A DNA stretch of 64,000 nucleotides, taken from the IMG/VR virus record IMGVR_UViG_3300027304_000003. The stretch is one strand, 5' to 3'. Made by a program: the position numbers and the translations under genes. Shown piece by piece: positions 13,401-55,912 of this stretch. The stretch is from a virus. Its lineage: Duplodnaviria > Heunggongvirae > Uroviricota > Caudoviricetes. The notes under the pieces are model-generated. The model was given only the letters and a program-made list of their open reading frames with translations, was not told the origin of the DNA and did no database searches. Numbering within the stretch: the first letter of the stretch is position 1; the number at the start of each line of letters is the position of its first letter.

Positions 13401-16400
13401 ATACAATGGATTAAACTCAACATCCTTACCATCTTTAGCTTTCTTTTGAACATCTTCTGACATCAATCTTAATGCTTCAAAGATACTCTTAGCTTCATCT
13501 GGTGTAAACTTTCTATTGTTTAACCACTGCAATGTGTCACCATATTGCAACATTGGTCTTCCTTTAGGGATATTATAGTTTTCTCCATTGTGAGAAATGA
13601 TTCCTGTTGTAGAAACTACAATTACATTAGCTTGATTCTTAATCTTCTTTTCAGGGATTAAGTTATCACCAACATGATTAGTTTCAGGCTTACCATCTAC
13701 AGGAGTTTCAACAGCCATACCTCTAGAGATAGAGAAGCTGTATAACTGTGGATTGTTAGGATCTGAAGCAAACACATCTGCCCTTGCTTTCTTCCAAGCC
13801 TCCATATATGCTTCTGCTTCTGCCTCCTCACCTTTTTTAAATCTAGGCACAGGATTGCCTTGAGCATCTTTGTAATTATAATACAATGATGCTGTAGGCA
13901 TATTAGCAAATACTAAACTATTAACATCTGCTTGTGTACCATCTACTTTAGATAAACGCTTACCATCTTTATCAACATAATAAAGAGTGCTACCCTCTTG
14001 TTCCACATAAACAGCAGTTACCAATCCATTATCTACATCAATAAGCTTTGCTTGCTCCTCAGGTGTAAACGTTTCTTGGCCATAAGCTACATTATCAAGA
14101 GTGGTTAATCCTAATCCTTTATATTGTTTAGGAGTGACAAGCATCACTTTGATGTTGTCTCTATTAGAGAAGTTCTTAATATTATTTAAGAACTGTCTTG
14201 TACGTATTTGATATGTCTTAGAAGGAGCAACACCATCATCCATTGAGTCTACAGTGGAGATAAAGAATATATCAACTCTCTTCTTCTTAGGTTCTTTTAC
14301 TTGCTGCTCTTTGCTTGGGTCATCAGTAGATACTGCTCCAGACTTTATTTCTATTCTAGTTTGAGCAGCTCCTAACTGATTAGCTATCTTCTGTAGTTTC
14401 TCTTGATCTGTTTGAACTCTACTGAAACCAGATAACTTTCTAGGATTAATATCATAGATGTCACCATTAACATCTTCTATCTTAATTGAACCATCTGGAT
14501 TAAGAGCCAAAACCTTAATCTTCTGTAAGTTATTAAACTCATCAGTTAGTTCATCAGATCTTTCTTGTGCTTTTTCTTTGCTAGGAAGTATCTCATATGT
14601 TCCATCAGGAGATACAACTTGCCATCTATCATCATCAAGTTTATTAATCTTTGTCTTATACACCTTACCCATCTCATACTCTCTATCCACCTCAAGATTC
14701 TCAGCTTGTTTATTAGCATTGTTGAATCTAAACTTTACAGGTTCTTTAGGTGTCTCTGGTGTAGGAGCAGTTTCTTCTTTCTTCTCTTCCTCATTTACAA
14801 CAGCATCTTTATCAGAAGCCATTTCTTCTGCCTCTTTGAAGTATTTCTCAAAGCCTTCTTTAGTAGACATCTCATCATAAGCCTTAGATGCATCCTTCTT
14901 TCTTTTTTCTAAAGCGTTGATATCTACACTATAATCCATTAATTCTTGAGCATGTAAAGAAGCTACAGATTTACCTAATGTAGCATCTTGACCATTCAAC
15001 TCAAAGTTTAATAAGCTATCAAATGTTTTATCATCTACCTTACCAGTATTAAGTGCTTGGGCAATTAGTTCAGATCTTGTACGTAATGCTTTGATCTGAT
15101 CATTTATTTTCTTCTTATCTACAGGTGTAGTGTAATCTGTAATAGTCTTCTTTAAAGATGTAGCTTTCTCTTCATAGAACTTAGCTAATTCTGCAAGACC
15201 TTGATTATTAGTAAGTTGTGATAATACGTCTGTAGTGATATTAGGATTAATCTTATTAACAGACTCTTGAATAGATTGAATTCTACTATCTGCAAGCGTT
15301 GGCATTGCAGCAAAATAGGTTAAGTCTTTCTTATACTTTTCAAATGTAATATAGTTGTTAGCCTCAACAATACTATCTATATTATCAGCATTATAGTTTA
15401 TCTTAAATGGATTCTTAAATGTAGTATTAACAGTTTCATATGTATCTTTAATATCATTTGATTTGGCAATCATACCATCTACATATTCACTTACAGTGGC
15501 TCTGTTTGTAGAATTGAAATCCAATTGGAACATACTTTCAAACTGTTCTTTGGATAGGTTTTTCAACATATTCAATTGCTCAACTGTTACATCATGCATT
15601 CCTGATGGAAGACGAGATGTTACAAAGTTGAAGAACTCATCAGCCTGTAAGTTTTTATATTTAAACACATCACCTGAAGCAGCAGCTTCTTCCATATCTT
15701 TTGCAATACCTGCAGAAGTTACAGTGTTATCATAGTTATTCTGTAATGTACTAGTAATACCCACTTGATTAAGTACATTAGTTGCTGTAGCTAATCTAGC
15801 ATCTTTACTTAATCCTCTCTTAGCATCAATACCACTTTGTACACCACCAACAACAAGACCTGTTAATCCACCAATCAACATGTTCTCAAGACCTTCTGTA
15901 CTAGTAAATTGTTCATTCAATCCATAGACAGTGGAATTGATTAATTCATTAACACCATTCCATTGTTCCTTATACTTATCACTCTTGTACTTTCTTGTGT
16001 AATAATCATATGTTCCTCTCTCAGCTGCAAACTGTCCACCTTCTTCAAACACACCCTCTCTAAATACATTAGCACCTGTTGGTCTAACACTTTCCCATAC
16101 CTTTCCTAAAACAGATGTAGCTGCCTTTTTTTCAAACACATCTAAGCTACCTTCTTTTAATCCTACTTTACCAAGTCCTTCTAACTCTTGTGTAAGTGAT
16201 CCAGATATAGCTCTGCTGCCTGGAACACCAACCATTGTTTTAAATAAGTTATTGAACTGTAATGAGTTGGATACAGTGAGTAATGCCATGTTAATACCAA
16301 ACCTGGTATTCATAGCATTTGTAGAAAGGTTTTCTATTTGTTGTAAATCATCTCCTGTAGGCTCTTCTCCTGCATGAGTGAGTTTGTATTGGTTAGTTAA

Positions 16401-17381
16401 TTCATCCTTAACCATACTATATCCATTCCTAGACTCAACACCAGCTTCTGTCATAGCAGAACCTAATATAGCTGTGGTAGTTCTAAATCCTTTTCCTAAT
16501 TTTGCAGCTGCTGCCAATTGAGCAAGTTCAGTTACTTTGAACATCTGAGCTTCTGTCTTACCAAGTCTTTCACCTAATTGTTCAAGTCTTCCTAATTGAG
16601 AAATTTGCGTTGCCCCTAATCCTCTACCTATAGCAGTCTCAGCACTAAATAATTTATTTAGATATAATGAAGCCTTACCAATTTGGTTAGCTAATAGTGG
16701 AATCTCACCTATACCTTCTGTTACAGCACCTATTGCAATATCTTGTACAACAGCACCACCAACAGCTCCTAACATAAATCCTAGGTTGGGAATAAACTTC
16801 TCACCCCACCAATATGCATTTCCTTTCATAAAGGGAATAGCAGATAAGAAAGGATTCTCTCTAACATACTTACTAGCATAGTTAGGAAGATCCTCATTTA
16901 TATTTTTTACCCAGTTATCAATAGACCCTTCATATCCATCTGGATCTCCTGATAACTCAGATAGATCTTTTGATCTTGCAGCATCTAATACATTAGGAAA
17001 GTTTGTTAAAGATTGAGCAAATGTTCCAGCTCCTATCAATCCCATCTTAGCAATACCATTACCTAATATCTTATACCAAGGTTGGCTCTCTGCATATACA
17101 TCTTCTAAATCAGGCATGTTCCTATCATAGATAGGATAGCGTCTATTTGCATATATTTCAGCAGCAGAAATAGAACCAAAAGATTTACCAAATCCTTTTG
17201 GAGCCACATCTGGTAAGTTTATTATTTCATCAATACTTAATCCACGTTGTTTTTCAGGGCCATATAAAGCTCCTCCAATAGATAAATCTACTGGTTTTGC
17301 AGAACCTAAAACAGATTTAGGTGCACCTAATTCACTTAAGTAATCAGTATCTTGTATAGGTTCTTGCTCAGACATTGCCAT
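4461..17381 (-). CDS. Giant 4306-aa virion protein. It has an RNAP beta-prime-like DxDxD motif (DFDID, nt about 7651-7665) and an HExxH zincin motif (HEIFH, nt about 11700-11715). Candidate crAss-like virion RNA polymerase/ejected multidomain protein.
   Basis: One uninterrupted 12.9-kb ORF. The motifs AGSDFDIDKL and EYHEIFHGIFGG are read directly. It lies at the distal end of the structural operon, where crAss-like phages place their giant RNAP-containing proteins. Confidence 0.85.
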   Translation of the reverse strand: MAMSEQEPIQDTDYLSELGAPKSVLGSAKPVDLSIGGALYGPEKQRGLSIDEIINLPDVAPKGFGKSFGSISAAEIYANRRYPIYDRNMPDLEDVYAESQPWYKILGNGIAKMGLIGAGTFAQSLTNFPNVLDAARSKDLSELSGDPDGYEGSIDNWVKNINEDLPNYASKYVRENPFLSAIPFMKGNAYWWGEKFIPNLGFMLGAVGGAVVQDIAIGAVTEGIGEIPLLANQIGKASLYLNKLFSAETAIGRGLGATQISQLGRLEQLGERLGKTEAQMFKVTELAQLAAAAKLGKGFRTTTAILGSAMTEAGVESRNGYSMVKDELTNQYKLTHAGEEPTGDDLQQIENLSTNAMNTRFGINMALLTVSNSLQFNNLFKTMVGVPGSRAISGSLTQELEGLGKVGLKEGSLDVFEKKAATSVLGKVWESVRPTGANVFREGVFEEGGQFAAERGTYDYYTRKYKSDKYKEQWNGVNELINSTVYGLNEQFTSTEGLENMLIGGLTGLVVGGVQSGIDAKRGLSKDARLATATNVLNQVGITSTLQNNYDNTVTSAGIAKDMEEAAASGDVFKYKNLQADEFFNFVTSRLPSGMHDVTVEQLNMLKNLSKEQFESMFQLDFNSTNRATVSEYVDGMIAKSNDIKDTYETVNTTFKNPFKINYNADNIDSIVEANNYITFEKYKKDLTYFAAMPTLADSRIQSIQESVNKINPNITTDVLSQLTNNQGLAELAKFYEEKATSLKKTITDYTTPVDKKKINDQIKALRTRSELIAQALNTGKVDDKTFDSLLNFELNGQDATLGKSVASLHAQELMDYSVDINALEKRKKDASKAYDEMSTKEGFEKYFKEAEEMASDKDAVVNEEEKKEETAPTPETPKEPVKFRFNNANKQAENLEVDREYEMGKVYKTKINKLDDDRWQVVSPDGTYEILPSKEKAQERSDELTDEFNNLQKIKVLALNPDGSIKIEDVNGDIYDINPRKLSGFSRVQTDQEKLQKIANQLGAAQTRIEIKSGAVSTDDPSKEQQVKEPKKKRVDIFFISTVDSMDDGVAPSKTYQIRTRQFLNNIKNFSNRDNIKVMLVTPKQYKGLGLTTLDNVAYGQETFTPEEQAKLIDVDNGLVTAVYVEQEGSTLYYVDKDGKRLSKVDGTQADVNSLVFANMPTASLYYNYKDAQGNPVPRFKKGEEAEAEAYMEAWKKARADVFASDPNNPQLYSFSISRGMAVETPVDGKPETNHVGDNLIPEKKIKNQANVIVVSTTGIISHNGENYNIPKGRPMLQYGDTLQWLNNRKFTPDEAKSIFEALRLMSEDVQKKAKDGKDVEFNPLYANFLQNVLFWKKGADTKNNQMYIDDRTMDLYLGGKKYNFANLAISEKEIVSQLQNTFNTVNNDSVKKNDEEFTELYFEDKYLKDRQWPNYQSYLLSSKLPNGKGRSIKDTPLSTSVTKPSDRVPYNYRQKYVTLGGLELAVQKITKPVAPVAKGGATEIGGYKMDGTTTHTRELKALGNVTFTARLNSNGVPAVTVDTIENLESIVADPAKTAPYFDFLKNNKDASGKSLFDATRSEQELMYDFASIAIANQLNKMKNAETAPAAQPAPVVSNEKGFQGYKGGFENTGKGTVQGDGKDKAMRKVADGFIGESVSTNNKSFVTSTQRIENLKPLSSTDTSYKEIADKTGTNYEGLDNNPSLQSGNDDGIIMLARNSKFSGKGLQKSTKDAILKAKNNGAEFVVGDMPGVDIQFIDYLQEIGAKFTIYHTGATSRTTIVGLVDDIAPAPTVQENVEKLEQLEDTVDDAEEKALEDEINKQIAEKVNALGKTKAPKKRYREIAGLDVPRMTDAELQLFKEWHAKNAAGIPFEVLQRVMTTNDGRQAWGAFENGVAKFYKSAARGTEYHEIFHGIFGGFLSAEERQLIFDEFKSKSGKFKDRATGSMIYYEEATDQQAEERIADDFADFRLGKLPAKSIGERILKFFRSIIQFVREFVNKPSKKDELFKTIEAGRFKDTKLNPAVYNQLTQWSVIPGLDEPTTHESVQDVAARFFFEVFSKNMDLYNPKLLTSPEIFDTIKEEFAEEGKLDVLGEEGWSQLVKKSREFLRTFKIQFDENNVIVFNNDDNTNRDYAPEPFSVDWKKQSSFPIKITVGSLVLTVPTNQENALRLQMPDEVISGSAKGFMLLNFSRAFATILNKISNTSSIGKVVDKLLTLAKQDSNYVRLWSKLGGTIDKLGSENKETAIDYSKFQAHDWRLFINFYQTFTKQHPNARIQYVSDDEVYTGSAELSDAIDDVVEGWIEGIKALSKDSKSLIVLDKPNKVYKVGDLSNIEIKNPEQMVDFLSKIGVIFPIDVYNKLTTREKNVFGRAIGGLLTSLRSKSDILSSVTSKLLDIKGPLNAMGEMLVRVTNPNFDPTHINVEGERTNGYAENNNSSVFENEWREAGTLENLKQARPELNDPFSTNSLILKKDGLYIDEDGNIKRDLKVGYIQGTKDVDTDDGTSTSKLTLGNRYTQEINENVNGRFYILLPAESSTEWQMDLGINVPFKQFGTKIGWDTTYKIFQGYLKDDIALAKDADVRKKLKNIGNRAYDLRFFKDILSEDMLAKINTELVMKSASDEEVIAFIAENEEEINGSIKSYFDEYINDTIATLKEYGQVVPSANGKALAYPMLNSVFAKISGINRYNLTDEKLRNLIEYVNINYVISNIEFHKILFGDPYQFALKEGESEETKRIKSFLSPRRTTFDMPEYNEFLNNEFNKAGEIELTPDDLGYHKHKSHTNTVTIKEIYVEGGLMGRTKEADAQSWIMDTTNREVKLKNAQWTDEAEIFHQWQMAYTRNRMAAKGKYTYTNDTLKKQDAALIETPVPKYGVEVLKPIVTGNKLGKTYFELVLDKFSQLPLYYQAIEGTTLEGLYIKMWEEKIGYAILESGRKMGTTEAFDLYKDGKLNPEPFNNLVQVPWKAYGIQVETNYDVVKAQTRGSQPTKLVTVDLFDNGVPVSQRAKEATDRNNNILDLMHENAYNVLLERLGIEDLGTEFILANKQAVSNTLVYEMLRRELDENAKDTVQLDSKGEFPIPFEASPSYKQIKDILYSVVQKTMVSPKVNGGPKVQVSVTGWENLEKGRRLAIKTEDGYKEISREDYDKLSDEEKKKVVLTDDTLKFYTKDDPYMEIMLPHWFGDTLRKTTKYTTDEEIINYLNITEEGKSILRGIGFRVPAQELSSLVTFRVKKFLPQFMGESVVVPSEITTLAGSDFDIDKLNTYLKSIYIDVNGNIRLVKWLGSEEATKDFFRGVYKDTIQRDIDKIEEFEEFRSKLVDVLSKLERIEGAASPESLESALTPSELDFFYDRLSIFKAITDQAAQKDITAVDYMNKQIEDLSINKEKLTKDILSNSLREDYVKDMYKRSLENEYYDSMEELLTLPENFERLISPVNDAGLEKLSVRIGKLVNPKGDQVKNKILNRNFMTKLRHYFVTAKRWIGIAATNITSHSLFQKGQIYLNPERFFMLPQQDRKFIGDGSIILPHNKVKIGDKEYASLSGTKTADGKKQYISSRLSGYGTSFVDVANKPYIVELVTSDLSVGTFMFLERIGAGEYTGIFMSQPIIREYLKQLDSQNKKGLFSKFDIDSIKSNFVTTNKAIETARIDISNLEANIADYYAGNELGIERNAEQHAILNEFLKYAKLAEYNFDLTQAINYDTTRYRSGDTLFKKQVRTDITIARSPFSGIAELLDPENPKIFIAKQRHYLDLSMEGMGVILKLEQDQFRINVIDPLLKPYARNKYVGADDFERIANKLKASFLDYIIQTKTGFNSEINKLFVNPKTSVSAQLEEAKKISSNPILNDFKVISSPRPDGVMSVKLTVNIKGSAYDKNLYIGYMRQLRDTPSTNALYKDLVKMALLQGTYENGVSIASIIPIEDSSKYVAPIMAPLMYDESLDAFADGGFQRNNWKDNKVFKKFEPKFWLADEAPVDVQVNDFGDIIGDIYQYQSSDYFPNIDKFGLSTDRRILALSEEYDSFYLSNDYLLVPRVVQIKGGERVDMKTGLSITNYSYVERKNQGDMSLKNVYGYKKVYYDDGTPVTYQTTTYKGEVINKHVYKLINLRGDGRLVSEYYTDSRKSVLNNGTEKIENEISDDEIRIYFNELGEQNFVSSQSTEPYIQIPDYVTDEKLKNADGTKRFAQASKLGTITINPPKSVDEFFNYFEGKEGGPTSEQKAKVLNKLADKGYTIDVLKTILNSVDKITNFLVLHEKNHVENNDIDVYWKNGKDLLTDDKVDIETRATIAALDKLGGIPSVIDIEFEDVNTDDTEGSDNPTPCGTKQ

Positions 17382-53841: not shown

Positions 53842-54184
53842 ATATAGTTTTTGTTGTTAGCAAATTGATCAGAGCTTCTGTTTTTTCTAGTGTCACCTTA
53901 GATGAACGTTTCTTTTGTTCAGATGTAGTTTCATCTATTATTATCCTTTCCATTGCCTGCTTCTTAGCATTCAATTGTCCAAGTCGTTTTATAGCTTTCT
54001 TCTCATTGAAATAGAACTTACCAAAGCCAGATATCTCTAGACTATTGTTAAGATCCATTGCCTCATTGGCAGACTGAAACTGATGGTTTATCACAGCCTC
54101 AATCATCTTTTCATTCATCATCATCTTAACTGCAAGCGTCCTAACTAGGAAGTCTTTAACAGACATGCTTATAGGCTTATCCAT
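53783..54184 (-). CDS. 133-aa HU/IHF-like DNA-binding protein.
   Basis: Two N-terminal helices followed by the GFGKFYF beta-arm-like motif. crAss-like phages are known to encode IHF-like proteins in this module. Confidence 0.5.
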   Translation of the reverse strand: MDKPISMSVKDFLVRTLAVKMMMNEKMIEAVINHQFQSANEAMDLNNSLEISGFGKFYFNEKKAIKRLGQLNAKKQAMERIIIDETTSEQKKRSSKVTLEKTEALINLLTTKTIYEDQLLSDIRGVEEQPLSS

Positions 54185-54551
54185 GTATTAGACTTATTTG
54201 CAATATAATATCCTTGTCGAAGTTGAGCAAGATGAGAGGATTGACCTTCACCTTTGTCCCATCCTTTACAAACACACCCATCTTCTTCAGCTTACTAATA
54301 ATGTTATTGATTGCAGGAGATGTACTGTCGTACTTCTCACAAAACTCCTTACGTATGTTAGCATAGGATATATTACCCTTCATGGCAGCAAACGCAATAA
54401 GCTGTATCTCCCTGTTTGTCAACTTAAGGTCGTTGACAGATGACAAGATCCTATAATACTTCTCAGCCAGGACGTAACTGTCCTCCACTGATCTTTTCAG
54501 TCGTTGTACAATAGGAGATTTAGGTTTGGTTTCCATAATTAGTTGATACAA
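54177..54551 (-). CDS. 124-aa putative winged-helix/HTH DNA-binding protein. First gene of the minus-strand operon.
   Basis: ORF adjacent to the regulatory region. The segment LTNREIQLIAFAAMKGNISYANIRKEF is HTH-like. Confidence 0.45.
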   Translation of the reverse strand: MYQLIMETKPKSPIVQRLKRSVEDSYVLAEKYYRILSSVNDLKLTNREIQLIAFAAMKGNISYANIRKEFCEKYDSTSPAINNIISKLKKMGVFVKDGTKVKVNPLILLNFDKDIILQISLIHG

Positions 54552-54614
54552 AGGTATGTATATCTTACCTATCTACAAATAACTATTTTAGTTATTGCAA
54601 AAGTTAATGCTATA

Positions 54615-54860
54615 TTATGCATCAAATCTCCTAAACAGGAAAATAACACTGAATAACAACAGTCCTATCCTAAGCTCCTGTTCTAACCCTTCATCTTCCA
54701 ACTTGTAGTTTCTATTAGACACTCCTAGTTCAAAACTATTGTAGTCTTTAGGTAGAAACTCTATACCTATCTCATACTCCTCAAAGCAGACTAACCCCCA
54801 TACAATCACTGCCATACTAAGTAACGTCACTATAACCAACAACACATTTACTACTACCAT
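54615..54860 (-). CDS. 81-aa small membrane protein with hydrophobic N- and C-terminal helices.
   Basis: ORF with two hydrophobic stretches. Confidence 0.45.
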   Translation of the reverse strand: MVVVNVLLVIVTLLSMAVIVWGLVCFEEYEIGIEFLPKDYNSFELGVSNRNYKLEDEGLEQELRIGLLLFSVIFLFRRFDA

Positions 54861-55126
54861 ATATCTAAGCTTTTATTAATGAGAGGTGAATTAGCAGGGC
54901 CCCCCCTAAATCCCCCCCAAAGATACTGCTAAATAAATTTACCAGCCAAATTTATTTTTTCCTATTATCAAAACTTGCAGGATTTTCTAGTTTTGATACA
55001 ACAGGATATTATATCATAAAGCATATAATATGTAAGATGATTCCATCATTATATGTAAAGACATATCATAATGTGTCATAAAAGCAACATTGTTAAGCTG
55101 AGCATATCCCTTATAAGACACATTAT

Positions 55127-55176
55127 GTAAAGCTATAGCTTGACAAAACGTAAGATGGGTAAAGCTATAGCTTGAC
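55127..55176. repeat. Two perfect 18-bp direct repeats GTAAAGCTATAGCTTGAC 32 bp apart, each containing the 12-bp palindrome AAGCTATAGCTT.
   Basis: Read directly at 55127-55144 and 55159-55176. Confidence 0.8.
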
Positions 55177-55268
55177 TTTTGGCAGAATATAGACTTGTTA
55201 TAACTTGCCAAATCAGGAAGTAAAACACAGCCAAACCCAGAAGTCCTTGTTACCTATTTATATAAATA

Positions 55269-55330
55269 TGTCACAAATATTTGAAAAATTGTGACACAAT
55301 GTGCATGAAGAATTTGGAAAAATTCATGCA
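55269..55330. repeat. Tandem pair of similar palindromic elements: TGTCACAA-N12-TTGTGACA and TGCATGAA-N13-TTCATGCA. Both spacers contain TTTG(G)AAAAA.
   Basis: Read directly at 55269-76/55289-96 and 55302-09/55323-30. Confidence 0.8.
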
Positions 55331-55525
55331 ACGTTCCTTGTGGAACTATCCTGTGCTTAGGCCCAAAATTTTATATAGCCCCCCTACCCCCTTTGTATGT
55401 ATAGGGGAGGAGGGTAACCCAGATTGCACCCCCGTGCACAAAACAGGGGGTTGACATAGCCCCCCTATGGCTCACAATTAACAAACCTATAGTGGAGACA
55501 CCACTACAAAACTGTAAAATTCGTT

Positions 55526-55912
55526 ATGGTAATCAATTCAGGCAACTTCTCACCAAATGGTAACTTCAATGGTTACAACACTAAAGGCGAAAGAATCCAC
55601 ATCTACAAGCGTCAGATGGATGCATTGGGCATTAAGGTTGATGCAGACTTTAAGCAATTCTTCGCTATAGTTGCAAAGAAGACTTATGGTGCAAGACTTG
55701 ACAAAGATGGTAATGCAATACCTTACGCTGATGGCAAGTTAACAATGACTCGTGATACTGCAACTGCAGTGTTCAAGACCAAGCAAGAGTACATTGACGC
55801 TCACGTGATAGACGCTACATTAGATGCAGAAGTTGCACAGGCTATCAAGAAAGAGTACACTGCTGTGGGCATCACAAGCGAAGCAGAGCTTGAAGAGTTG
55901 GCAGGGGCTTAA
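55526..55912 (+). CDS. 128-aa early protein, unknown function.
   Basis: First ORF of the plus-strand block; followed by a terminator hairpin. Confidence 0.7.
   Translation: MVINSGNFSPNGNFNGYNTKGERIHIYKRQMDALGIKVDADFKQFFAIVAKKTYGARLDKDGNAIPYADGKLTMTRDTATAVFKTKQEYIDAHVIDATLDAEVAQAIKKEYTAVGITSEAELEELAGA

Follow-up and report, generated by a model that had tools for sequence, protein, structure and literature searches.

Two adjacent palindromes, P1 and P2, located at the head of the early block of a crAss-like phage, were also found in many unrelated phages and matched palindromes that adjoin genes for AbiEi, the antitoxin-repressor of AbiE abortive infection systems, in Bacteroidota. Judged from these sequence matches, P1 and P2 appear to be AbiEi-binding operator mimics serving as decoys against AbiE abortive infection in Bacteroidota, a reading to which we assign a probability of roughly 0.55. 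Positions refer to the window, that is, the whole stretch of 64,000 nt that was analysed.

Position and structure of the palindromes

The window, with about 34% G+C, belongs to a crAss-like phage. Its structural genes lay on the - strand and encoded a giant ORF product of 4306 aa, portal-sized and capsid-sized ORFs, a large terminase (matching phrog_6681, E = 3e-82), and an HU/IHF-like protein, and a + strand block of small ORFs began at 55526; many ORFs of the early region were small and unannotated. P1 and P2 were situated in the divergent intergenic region between the - strand structural block and the + strand early block, with 196 nt separating them from the first + strand ORF. The features considered here were as follows.

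4461-17381, - strand: ORF of 4306 aa, polymerase-like, about twice the length of the virion RNA polymerase gp66 of phi14:2
55247-55276: degenerate third palindrome, type C, TTGTTAC...GTCACAA, its right arm merged into the left arm of P1
55268-55297: P1 plus flanking bases, ATGTCACAAATATTTGAAAAATTGTGACAC
55269-55296: P1, type B palindrome; left arm TGTCACAA (55269-55276), 12-nt spacer ATATTTGAAAAA, right arm TTGTGACA (55289-55296)
55297-55301: 5-nt linker CAATG between P1 and P2
55302-55330: P2, type A palindrome; left arm TGCATGAA (55302-55309), 13-nt spacer GAATTTGGAAAAA, right arm TTCATGCA (55323-55330)
55333-55346: P3, short palindrome GTTCC-TTGT-GGAAC, directly 3' of P2

A sequence-only reading of the window had reported two adjacent, near-identical palindromes at 55269-55330. 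Sequence and coordinates proved exact, and "near-identical" was overstated, as the arms of P1 and P2 agree at 4 of 8 positions only; what the two have in common is their geometry and a spacer made up of a T-run, G, and an A-run. P1 and P2 were the only inverted repeats with TTTG(G)AAAA in the spacer in the 64-kb window, both on the + strand, and the right half of each occurred once. Inverted repeats with arms of at least 8 and loops of 10-15 nt numbered 19 in the window, compared with 9.5 +/- 3.1 in Markov simulations, and an adjacent pair of inverted repeats arose in 9 of 300 simulations; a lone 8-bp inverted repeat is not rare in the window. BLAST of the palindrome region against 50,697 GenBank phages gave no match, and a tRNA scan of the region detected none.

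Conservation, gain, and loss among relatives

Relatives were defined as 80 IMG/VR loci with terminases 83-98% identical to that of the window. Among them, the intergenic region was about 70-80% identical or unalignable, and P1 and P2 recurred with invariant arms, singly, paired, or about 93 nt apart. Comparison of 22 distinct P1-P2 sequences showed three invariant parts, namely the opening 20 nt of P1 (left arm and spacer, TGTCACAAATATTTGAAAAA), the P1 arm core TGTGACA, and the TGCATG/CATGCA core of the P2 arms; the flanks varied or were unrelated. The eighth base pair of P1 was lost in most relatives, giving TGTCACA-N14-TGTGACA, and the P2 spacer was variable in the sequence of its 5' part and 12 or 13 nt in length. 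Conservation of the half-sites in related genomes, the absence of which the sequence-only reading had named as a refuting outcome, was found, far beyond chance. Since the arms showed no compensatory changes, it is their sequence, and not merely their ability to pair, that is conserved. In one relative (L014, window-orientation 12526-12553), the P2 spacer was inverted relative to its flanks, TGCATGAA-TTTTTCCAAAAT-TTCATGCA; such a flip, mediated by a hairpin or cruciform, indicates that the arms pair in vivo.

Across 51 distinct related intergenic regions, palindromes of type A were present in 14, type B in 12, type E in 10, and type C in 6, and 28 had none. The palindromes are gained and lost among close relatives, and this patchy distribution indicates accessory modules rather than a core switch.

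Occurrence in unrelated phages

The 18-mer TTTGGAAAAATTCATGCA, comprising P2 spacer and right arm, was found in at least 119 viral contigs, and in most non-coding contexts the left arm (TGCATGAA or a close variant) lay 3-4 nt 5' of it, although the search did not require it. P2 occurred in at least 212 viral loci, and the 212 oriented loci represented 54 unrelated DNA contexts; 165 of 227 loci had no protein in common with the window. In the other contexts, the palindrome typically lay near genes for early functions and replication belonging to other phages. When the proteins encoded up to 3 kb or 1.2 kb to either side were clustered with BLAST or phmmer, no family was common to most of the 54 contexts. 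When P2 was searched with its arms only, the spacers were always T-run, G, and A-run, without conservation of the GG; matches with a G+C-rich spacer lacking this pattern were set aside as probably coding. A literature search with the bare motif TGCATGAA returned nothing informative.

P1 was also found in other phage contexts. The P1 sequence occurred, in addition, within stretches encoding a signal peptide of Bacteroidota (MKKLLFLVTIFQIFVTFSYAQ) in L328, L330, L341, L348, L356, and similar metagenome loci, and these matches were excluded as false positives of the P1 pattern. Where the P1-P2 pair was present in unrelated flanks (L363, L294, and L236), the 5-nt gap was kept as CAATG, CAATA, CAATC, GAATC, or TAATT, indicating that the pair moves as a 62-bp cassette. 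Two further types, D and F, flanked P1 or P2 in other phages, and up to three or four palindrome types were assembled in one phage array.

Matching palindromes at bacterial AbiEi genes

The P2 pattern TGCATGAA-N5-8-GAAAAATTCATGCA, with 22 specified bases, was scanned over 185,579 species, one genome each. Matches were confined to 15 contigs, 12 of them from Bacteroidota MAGs, mostly of freshwater samples. Ten of these contigs carried the palindrome 34-42 nt upstream of the start of an AbiEi gene. This gene corresponded to PADLOC PDLC02234 (E = 1e-78); a gene for the AbiEii toxin, a nucleotidyltransferase (PF08843), followed it in L321 and was present in the same locus in L312. Between the palindrome and the PDLC02234-type AbiEi gene was a TAnnTTTG -7 box (TACCTTTG, TACTTTTG, or TACATTTG). 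The AbiEi proteins of this type were mutually 51-100% identical, and the palindrome arms were identical nonetheless. The arrangement recurred in another three clusters of homologues, found on chromosomal contigs (83-660 kb) that differed in defence-island context; here TGCATGA...CATGCA was located 16-19 nt before the -7 box. The bacterial copies of P2 type share with the phage P2 the arms and the half GGAAAAATTCATGCA; the spacers, however, are A-rich throughout in host copies, versus T-run, G, and A-run in phage copies.

A second AbiEi subfamily, that of the DUF6088/AbiEi_3_N type, had palindromes of P1 type before or abutting its genes in L312, L319, L338, and three more clusters (L404-L416), with two such palindromes in tandem in L410. 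Those of L411 (ATGTCACAAGTATTTTAAAAATTGTGACAT) and L312 (ATGTCACAAATTTTTTAAAAATTGTGACAT) were each identical to window positions 55268-55297 in 27 of 30 nt. In L312 and L319, which held genes of both AbiEi types, a separate palindrome of the matching kind lay next to each. Type D (TTGTCGCAA...TTGCGACAA) preceded a relative of the DUF6088-type AbiEi (38% identity) in L419, and type F (AATTCGG-N7-CCGAATT) was situated ahead of genes of a third AbiEi subfamily in L319 and L431-L437, one of these genes being located on a contig of 3.39 Mb. In this survey of AbiEi promoters, covering about ten protein clusters, each palindrome type lies upstream of, and matches, one AbiEi subfamily in Bacteroidota. 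Genomic position, together with the behaviour of distant AbiEi homologues in Streptococcus and Mycobacterium, suggests that these palindromes are sites for the adjoining AbiEi. No host partner was identified for type E, which is frequent in this phage family, or for the repeat GTAAAGCTATAGCTTGAC described below.

L312, a Sediminibacterium MAG, and L319, a Daejeonella MAG, contained defence islands with two or three different AbiEi genes next to one another, every one accompanied by a palindrome of its own. In L312, no toxin gene was present directly 3' of the AbiEi gene of PDLC02234 type.

Other repeats in the intergenic region

A complete form of the type C palindrome, TTGTTAC-N16-GTAACAA, was present just 5' of P1 in the relatives L325, L332, L344, L376, and L378, and a GTAACAA-N14-TTGTTAC palindrome occurred in the bacterial AbiE islands of L319, L322, and L405-L409. 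Whether the two are equivalent is uncertain because the arm order differs between the phage and the AbiE-island forms. In variants of P3, GGTTCCCCATGGAACC (L096) and GTTCCATATGGAAC (L162), the dyad was kept or extended; its membership in the palindrome array is uncertain, and a search for a host counterpart of P3 found none.

An 18-bp near-perfect palindrome, GTAAAGCTATAGCTTGAC, was present in two exact copies, at 55127-55144 and 55159-55176, 32 bp apart, against a chance expectation of 0.08. It was detected in about 20 of the 80 related loci, was absent from the closest relatives (L001-L004), and looks like another swappable operator-like module. Three further inverted repeats with 8-10-bp arms were located in the same intergenic region at 54931-54957, 54967-54997, and 55006-55031, and 5 of the window's 19 inverted repeats fell within 400 bp of this region. 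The motif ATAGCCCCCCTA occurred twice 3' of P2 (55375-55386 and 55456-55467) and recurred in relatives, with a count in the window not above chance. C7 runs marked the left edge of the intergenic region (54900-54920). Contigs of this family, including those of 104-121 kb, often ended less than about 1 kb from this intergenic region (L010, L023, L102, L106, L223, and many shorter ones), which points to an assembly-break hot spot caused by hypervariability or to a nearby physical genome end or terminal repeat.

Absence of cognate genes and promoter boxes

No AbiEi or AbiEii homologue was detected in the window, in its early ORFs, or in about 370 phage loci. AbiEi of the DUF6088 type was encoded in only 14 of 2.9 million viral contigs, and the PDLC02234 type in none of them. 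A -7 box at operator distance (15-21 nt) accompanied 2 of 171 distinct phage copies; in the window, TAnnTTTG did not occur on the + strand of 55200-55480 or within 15-25 nt of P1 or P2. With neither an abiEi or abiEii gene nor a nearby -7 box, P1 and P2 are orphan copies and not a working abiE operator.

One -7 box, TAGTTTTG, was observed at 54988-54995 (+), about 270 nt 5' of P1. As it points rightward, P1 and P2 could be transcribed within a long leader.

Several other assignments were tried. Neither palindrome was called in a scan for sigma-70-type promoters and terminators, and an intrinsic terminator was rejected, the stems being A+T-rich with loops of 12-13 nt and no T-run following. The Bacteroidota sigma-A promoter (TAnnTTTG as the -7 box, with TTTG or TTG as the -33 box about 19 nt upstream) was likewise rejected, no TAnnTTTG being present at promoter distance. 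The known motifs of Bacteroidota LexA-like SOS boxes, GGA-N5-TCC and CTAA-N5-TTAG, did not fit the palindromes.

Operator mimicry as the preferred interpretation

Two antitoxins of this family, AbiEi from Streptococcus agalactiae and Rv2827c from Mycobacterium tuberculosis, are monomeric winged-helix proteins that bind inverted repeats and repress their own promoters; in Prv2827c, two repeat pairs stand in tandem, the repeats of a pair being separated by 13 bp and the pairs by 4 bp (PMC7319586). According to a 2026 preprint, AbiEi binds AbiEii and induces an inactivating auto-phosphorylation of the toxin, and related toxins are freed when the antitoxin is degraded, an effect countered by T7 Gp4.5. 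The phage region resembles PabiE and Prv2827c in its inverted-repeat pairs, with 12- and 13-bp gaps and a 5-bp linker corresponding to the 13-bp and 4-bp gaps of Prv2827c. The paired-repeat geometry of abiE operators (gaps of about 3-13 bp, tandem pairs) is therefore present, as is the sequence match, the phage arms and half of each spacer being identical to those of the Bacteroidota AbiEi-upstream palindromes. The phage copies differ in lying outside any abiEi-abiEii promoter, without abiEi, abiEii, or a -7 box, and in fusing two operators of different specificity into one 62-bp cassette.

In the proposed mechanism, phage DNA would enter a cell harbouring a matching AbiE, and each arm of P1 and P2 would then be occupied by a single monomer of host AbiEi. 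The position of the cassette at the head of the early block suggests that it may be among the first DNA to enter, in which case the sites could act without phage gene expression. They would form a DNA decoy or sponge for the antitoxin-repressor and disturb AbiE control to the benefit of the phage; the antitoxin might be stabilised or re-supplied, or AbiEi might be uncoupled from the toxin trigger. The decoy hypothesis follows from the view that the phage benefits, which is drawn from purifying selection on the arms, the lack of promoters and cognate genes, the stacking of specificities, horizontal spread, and location at the head of the early block. On the other side, negative autoregulation suggests that titration of AbiEi could raise toxin output, favouring the host over the phage. 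A broader form of the hypothesis, that lytic phages of freshwater Bacteroidota, this crAss-like phage among them, carry mobile operator arrays, one operator per host AbiEi, as protein-free and expression-independent decoys that disarm AbiE or upset its regulation on genome entry, is put forward only tentatively.

Alternative explanations

A serious rival to the decoy hypothesis, even if we consider it unlikely, is that the palindromes serve another native function in the phage and that host AbiEi evolved to recognise them, so that its titration frees AbiEii and aborts the infection. This model draws on the same matches to AbiEi-upstream palindromes and predicts the same binding as a decoy would; extra operator copies should, by inference, raise the output of the co-transcribed toxin in a negatively autoregulated operon, and the activation signals of AbiE are not established in the literature. 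Sites harmful to the phage should be lost, yet the arms are invariant across the 54 contexts, several types accumulate side by side in one phage, and the pair spreads as a cassette. Moreover, no alternative phage function or binder was found for the palindromes.

It is also rather doubtful that P1 and P2 are operators for a phage regulator, such as the winged-helix protein of 124 aa or a small protein whose AbiEi-like N-terminal domain the searches may have missed, that controls the divergent blocks, with the resemblance to AbiE reflecting shared ancestry of DNA-binding domains. The divergent intergenic location, the adjoining winged-helix gene, and the many small unannotated ORFs of early regions agree with such a role. 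The winged-helix protein (54177-54551), which has its own -7 box TACCTTTG at 54549-54556 (-) just before the gene, had been proposed as a binder in the sequence-only reading. Its putative recognition segment, (P/T)xINNIISKLKK, however, was kept in relatives with palindrome sets A, B, C, E, G, or none, and thus stays the same whichever palindromes are present. Similarity of its wing region to AbiEi was not significant (BLASTP E = 0.37), and it had no PADLOC AbiEi match, so that it was rejected as an AbiEi relative; nor was any AbiEi-like match obtained among the window proteins. The HU/IHF-like protein, another proposed binder, gave a generic Bac_DNA_binding match, and, as noted, no neighbour family is common to the 54 contexts. 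An array of three or four types would call for an equal number of regulators, the sites lack an adjacent -7 box, and an adjacent regulator co-varying with the operator, as in lambda-type immunity, was not found. A bidirectional promoter switch, also suggested earlier, is unsupported because neither palindrome has a canonical Bacteroidota -7 box 15-25 nt away. P1 and P2 are thus probably not operators for neighbouring phage proteins. What holds of the earlier description is their operator-like character, with invariant arms, varying spacers, and a match to sites upstream of AbiEi autorepressor genes; the phage binders proposed for them found no support.

A structural role was considered improbable. 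The palindromes could be cruciform or hairpin early promoters for an injected virion RNA polymerase, or RNA hairpins in a leader or non-coding RNA. Coliphage N4 has hairpin early promoters with 5-7-bp stems and 3-nt loops, which serve its virion RNA polymerase and are confined to N4-like phages, and the present phage resembles it in having a group of two or three inverted repeats where the early region begins and in injecting its own RNA polymerase. The palindrome region folds into three hairpins (z = -3.9), the loop flip in L014 indicates arm pairing in vivo, and the virion polymerase of the crAss-like phage phi14:2, which has no known early promoter motif, accepts as template in vitro only DNA that is single-stranded or denatured. 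Against this role, the stems show no compensatory changes and the arm sequence is kept across hundreds of loci, the 12-14-nt loops are unlike the 3-nt loops of N4, and Rfam covariance models over 54500-55700 gave no match at E <= 1. In addition, the palindromes occur in unrelated phages without homology to the window proteins, the giant polymerase-like ORF included, and at bacterial AbiEi genes, within abiE promoters.

Promoters for host RNA polymerase, either sigma-54 (-24/-12) or Bacteroidota sigma-A (-33/-7), can hardly be entertained: P2 of the window reads TGG-N9-TGCA, with a GG-N10-GC spacing that fits sigma-54, and the spacers contain TTTG, but P1 has neither of the sigma-54 dinucleotides, the TTTG varies, the TAnnTTTG of sigma-A is missing as stated above, and sigma-54 was rejected because the GG is not conserved, being often TG or AG among family members, as the spacers ATTTCTGAAAAA and ATATCAGAAAAA illustrate.

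Comparison with known phage elements

Phage PhiTE carries pseudo-ToxI repeats that neutralise ToxN, and T4 Dmd is a phage-encoded antitoxin mimic. In both cases, as proposed here for P1 and P2, a lytic phage subverts an abortive-infection toxin-antitoxin system of its host by means of a nucleic-acid or protein copy of one of the components. Pseudo-ToxI and Dmd replace the antitoxin itself, whereas the phage palindromes would mimic the DNA docking site of the antitoxin and need no expression. The literature search found no precedent for phage operator decoys of antitoxins.

In anti-CRISPR operons, the Aca operators are the targets of an autorepressor that the phage itself encodes in an adjoining gene. 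They are inverted repeats in phage early regions tied to defence and counter-defence, a tie proposed here for P1 and P2 as well; the cognate gene is adjacent for Aca, whereas this phage has none. The PeSL cassettes of T4-type phages are mobile promoter/stem-loop elements with many copies per genome that carry an early promoter. Like the P1-P2 cassette, they are short, conserved, and non-coding, and they are shuffled from one phage genome to another within hyperplastic regions, but the P1-P2 cassette is present in one copy per genome and has no promoter.

Implications

If AbiEi binds these sites, non-coding DNA of the phage would act directly in defence or counter-defence, an area in which searches for counter-defence target almost only proteins. 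Binding would also provide a first sequence-level handle on the link between AbiE and phages, and operators would be predicted for at least three AbiEi subfamilies of Bacteroidota. Should the decoy-array reading hold, counter-defence would gain a new class, one that resides in non-coding DNA and is fitted to the set of AbiE systems found among the hosts. Binding by AbiEi would, if true, explain a hypervariable, assembly-breaking intergenic hot spot in an abundant environmental crAss-like lineage, and the palindrome types could link uncultured phages to their hosts through matching AbiE repertoires.
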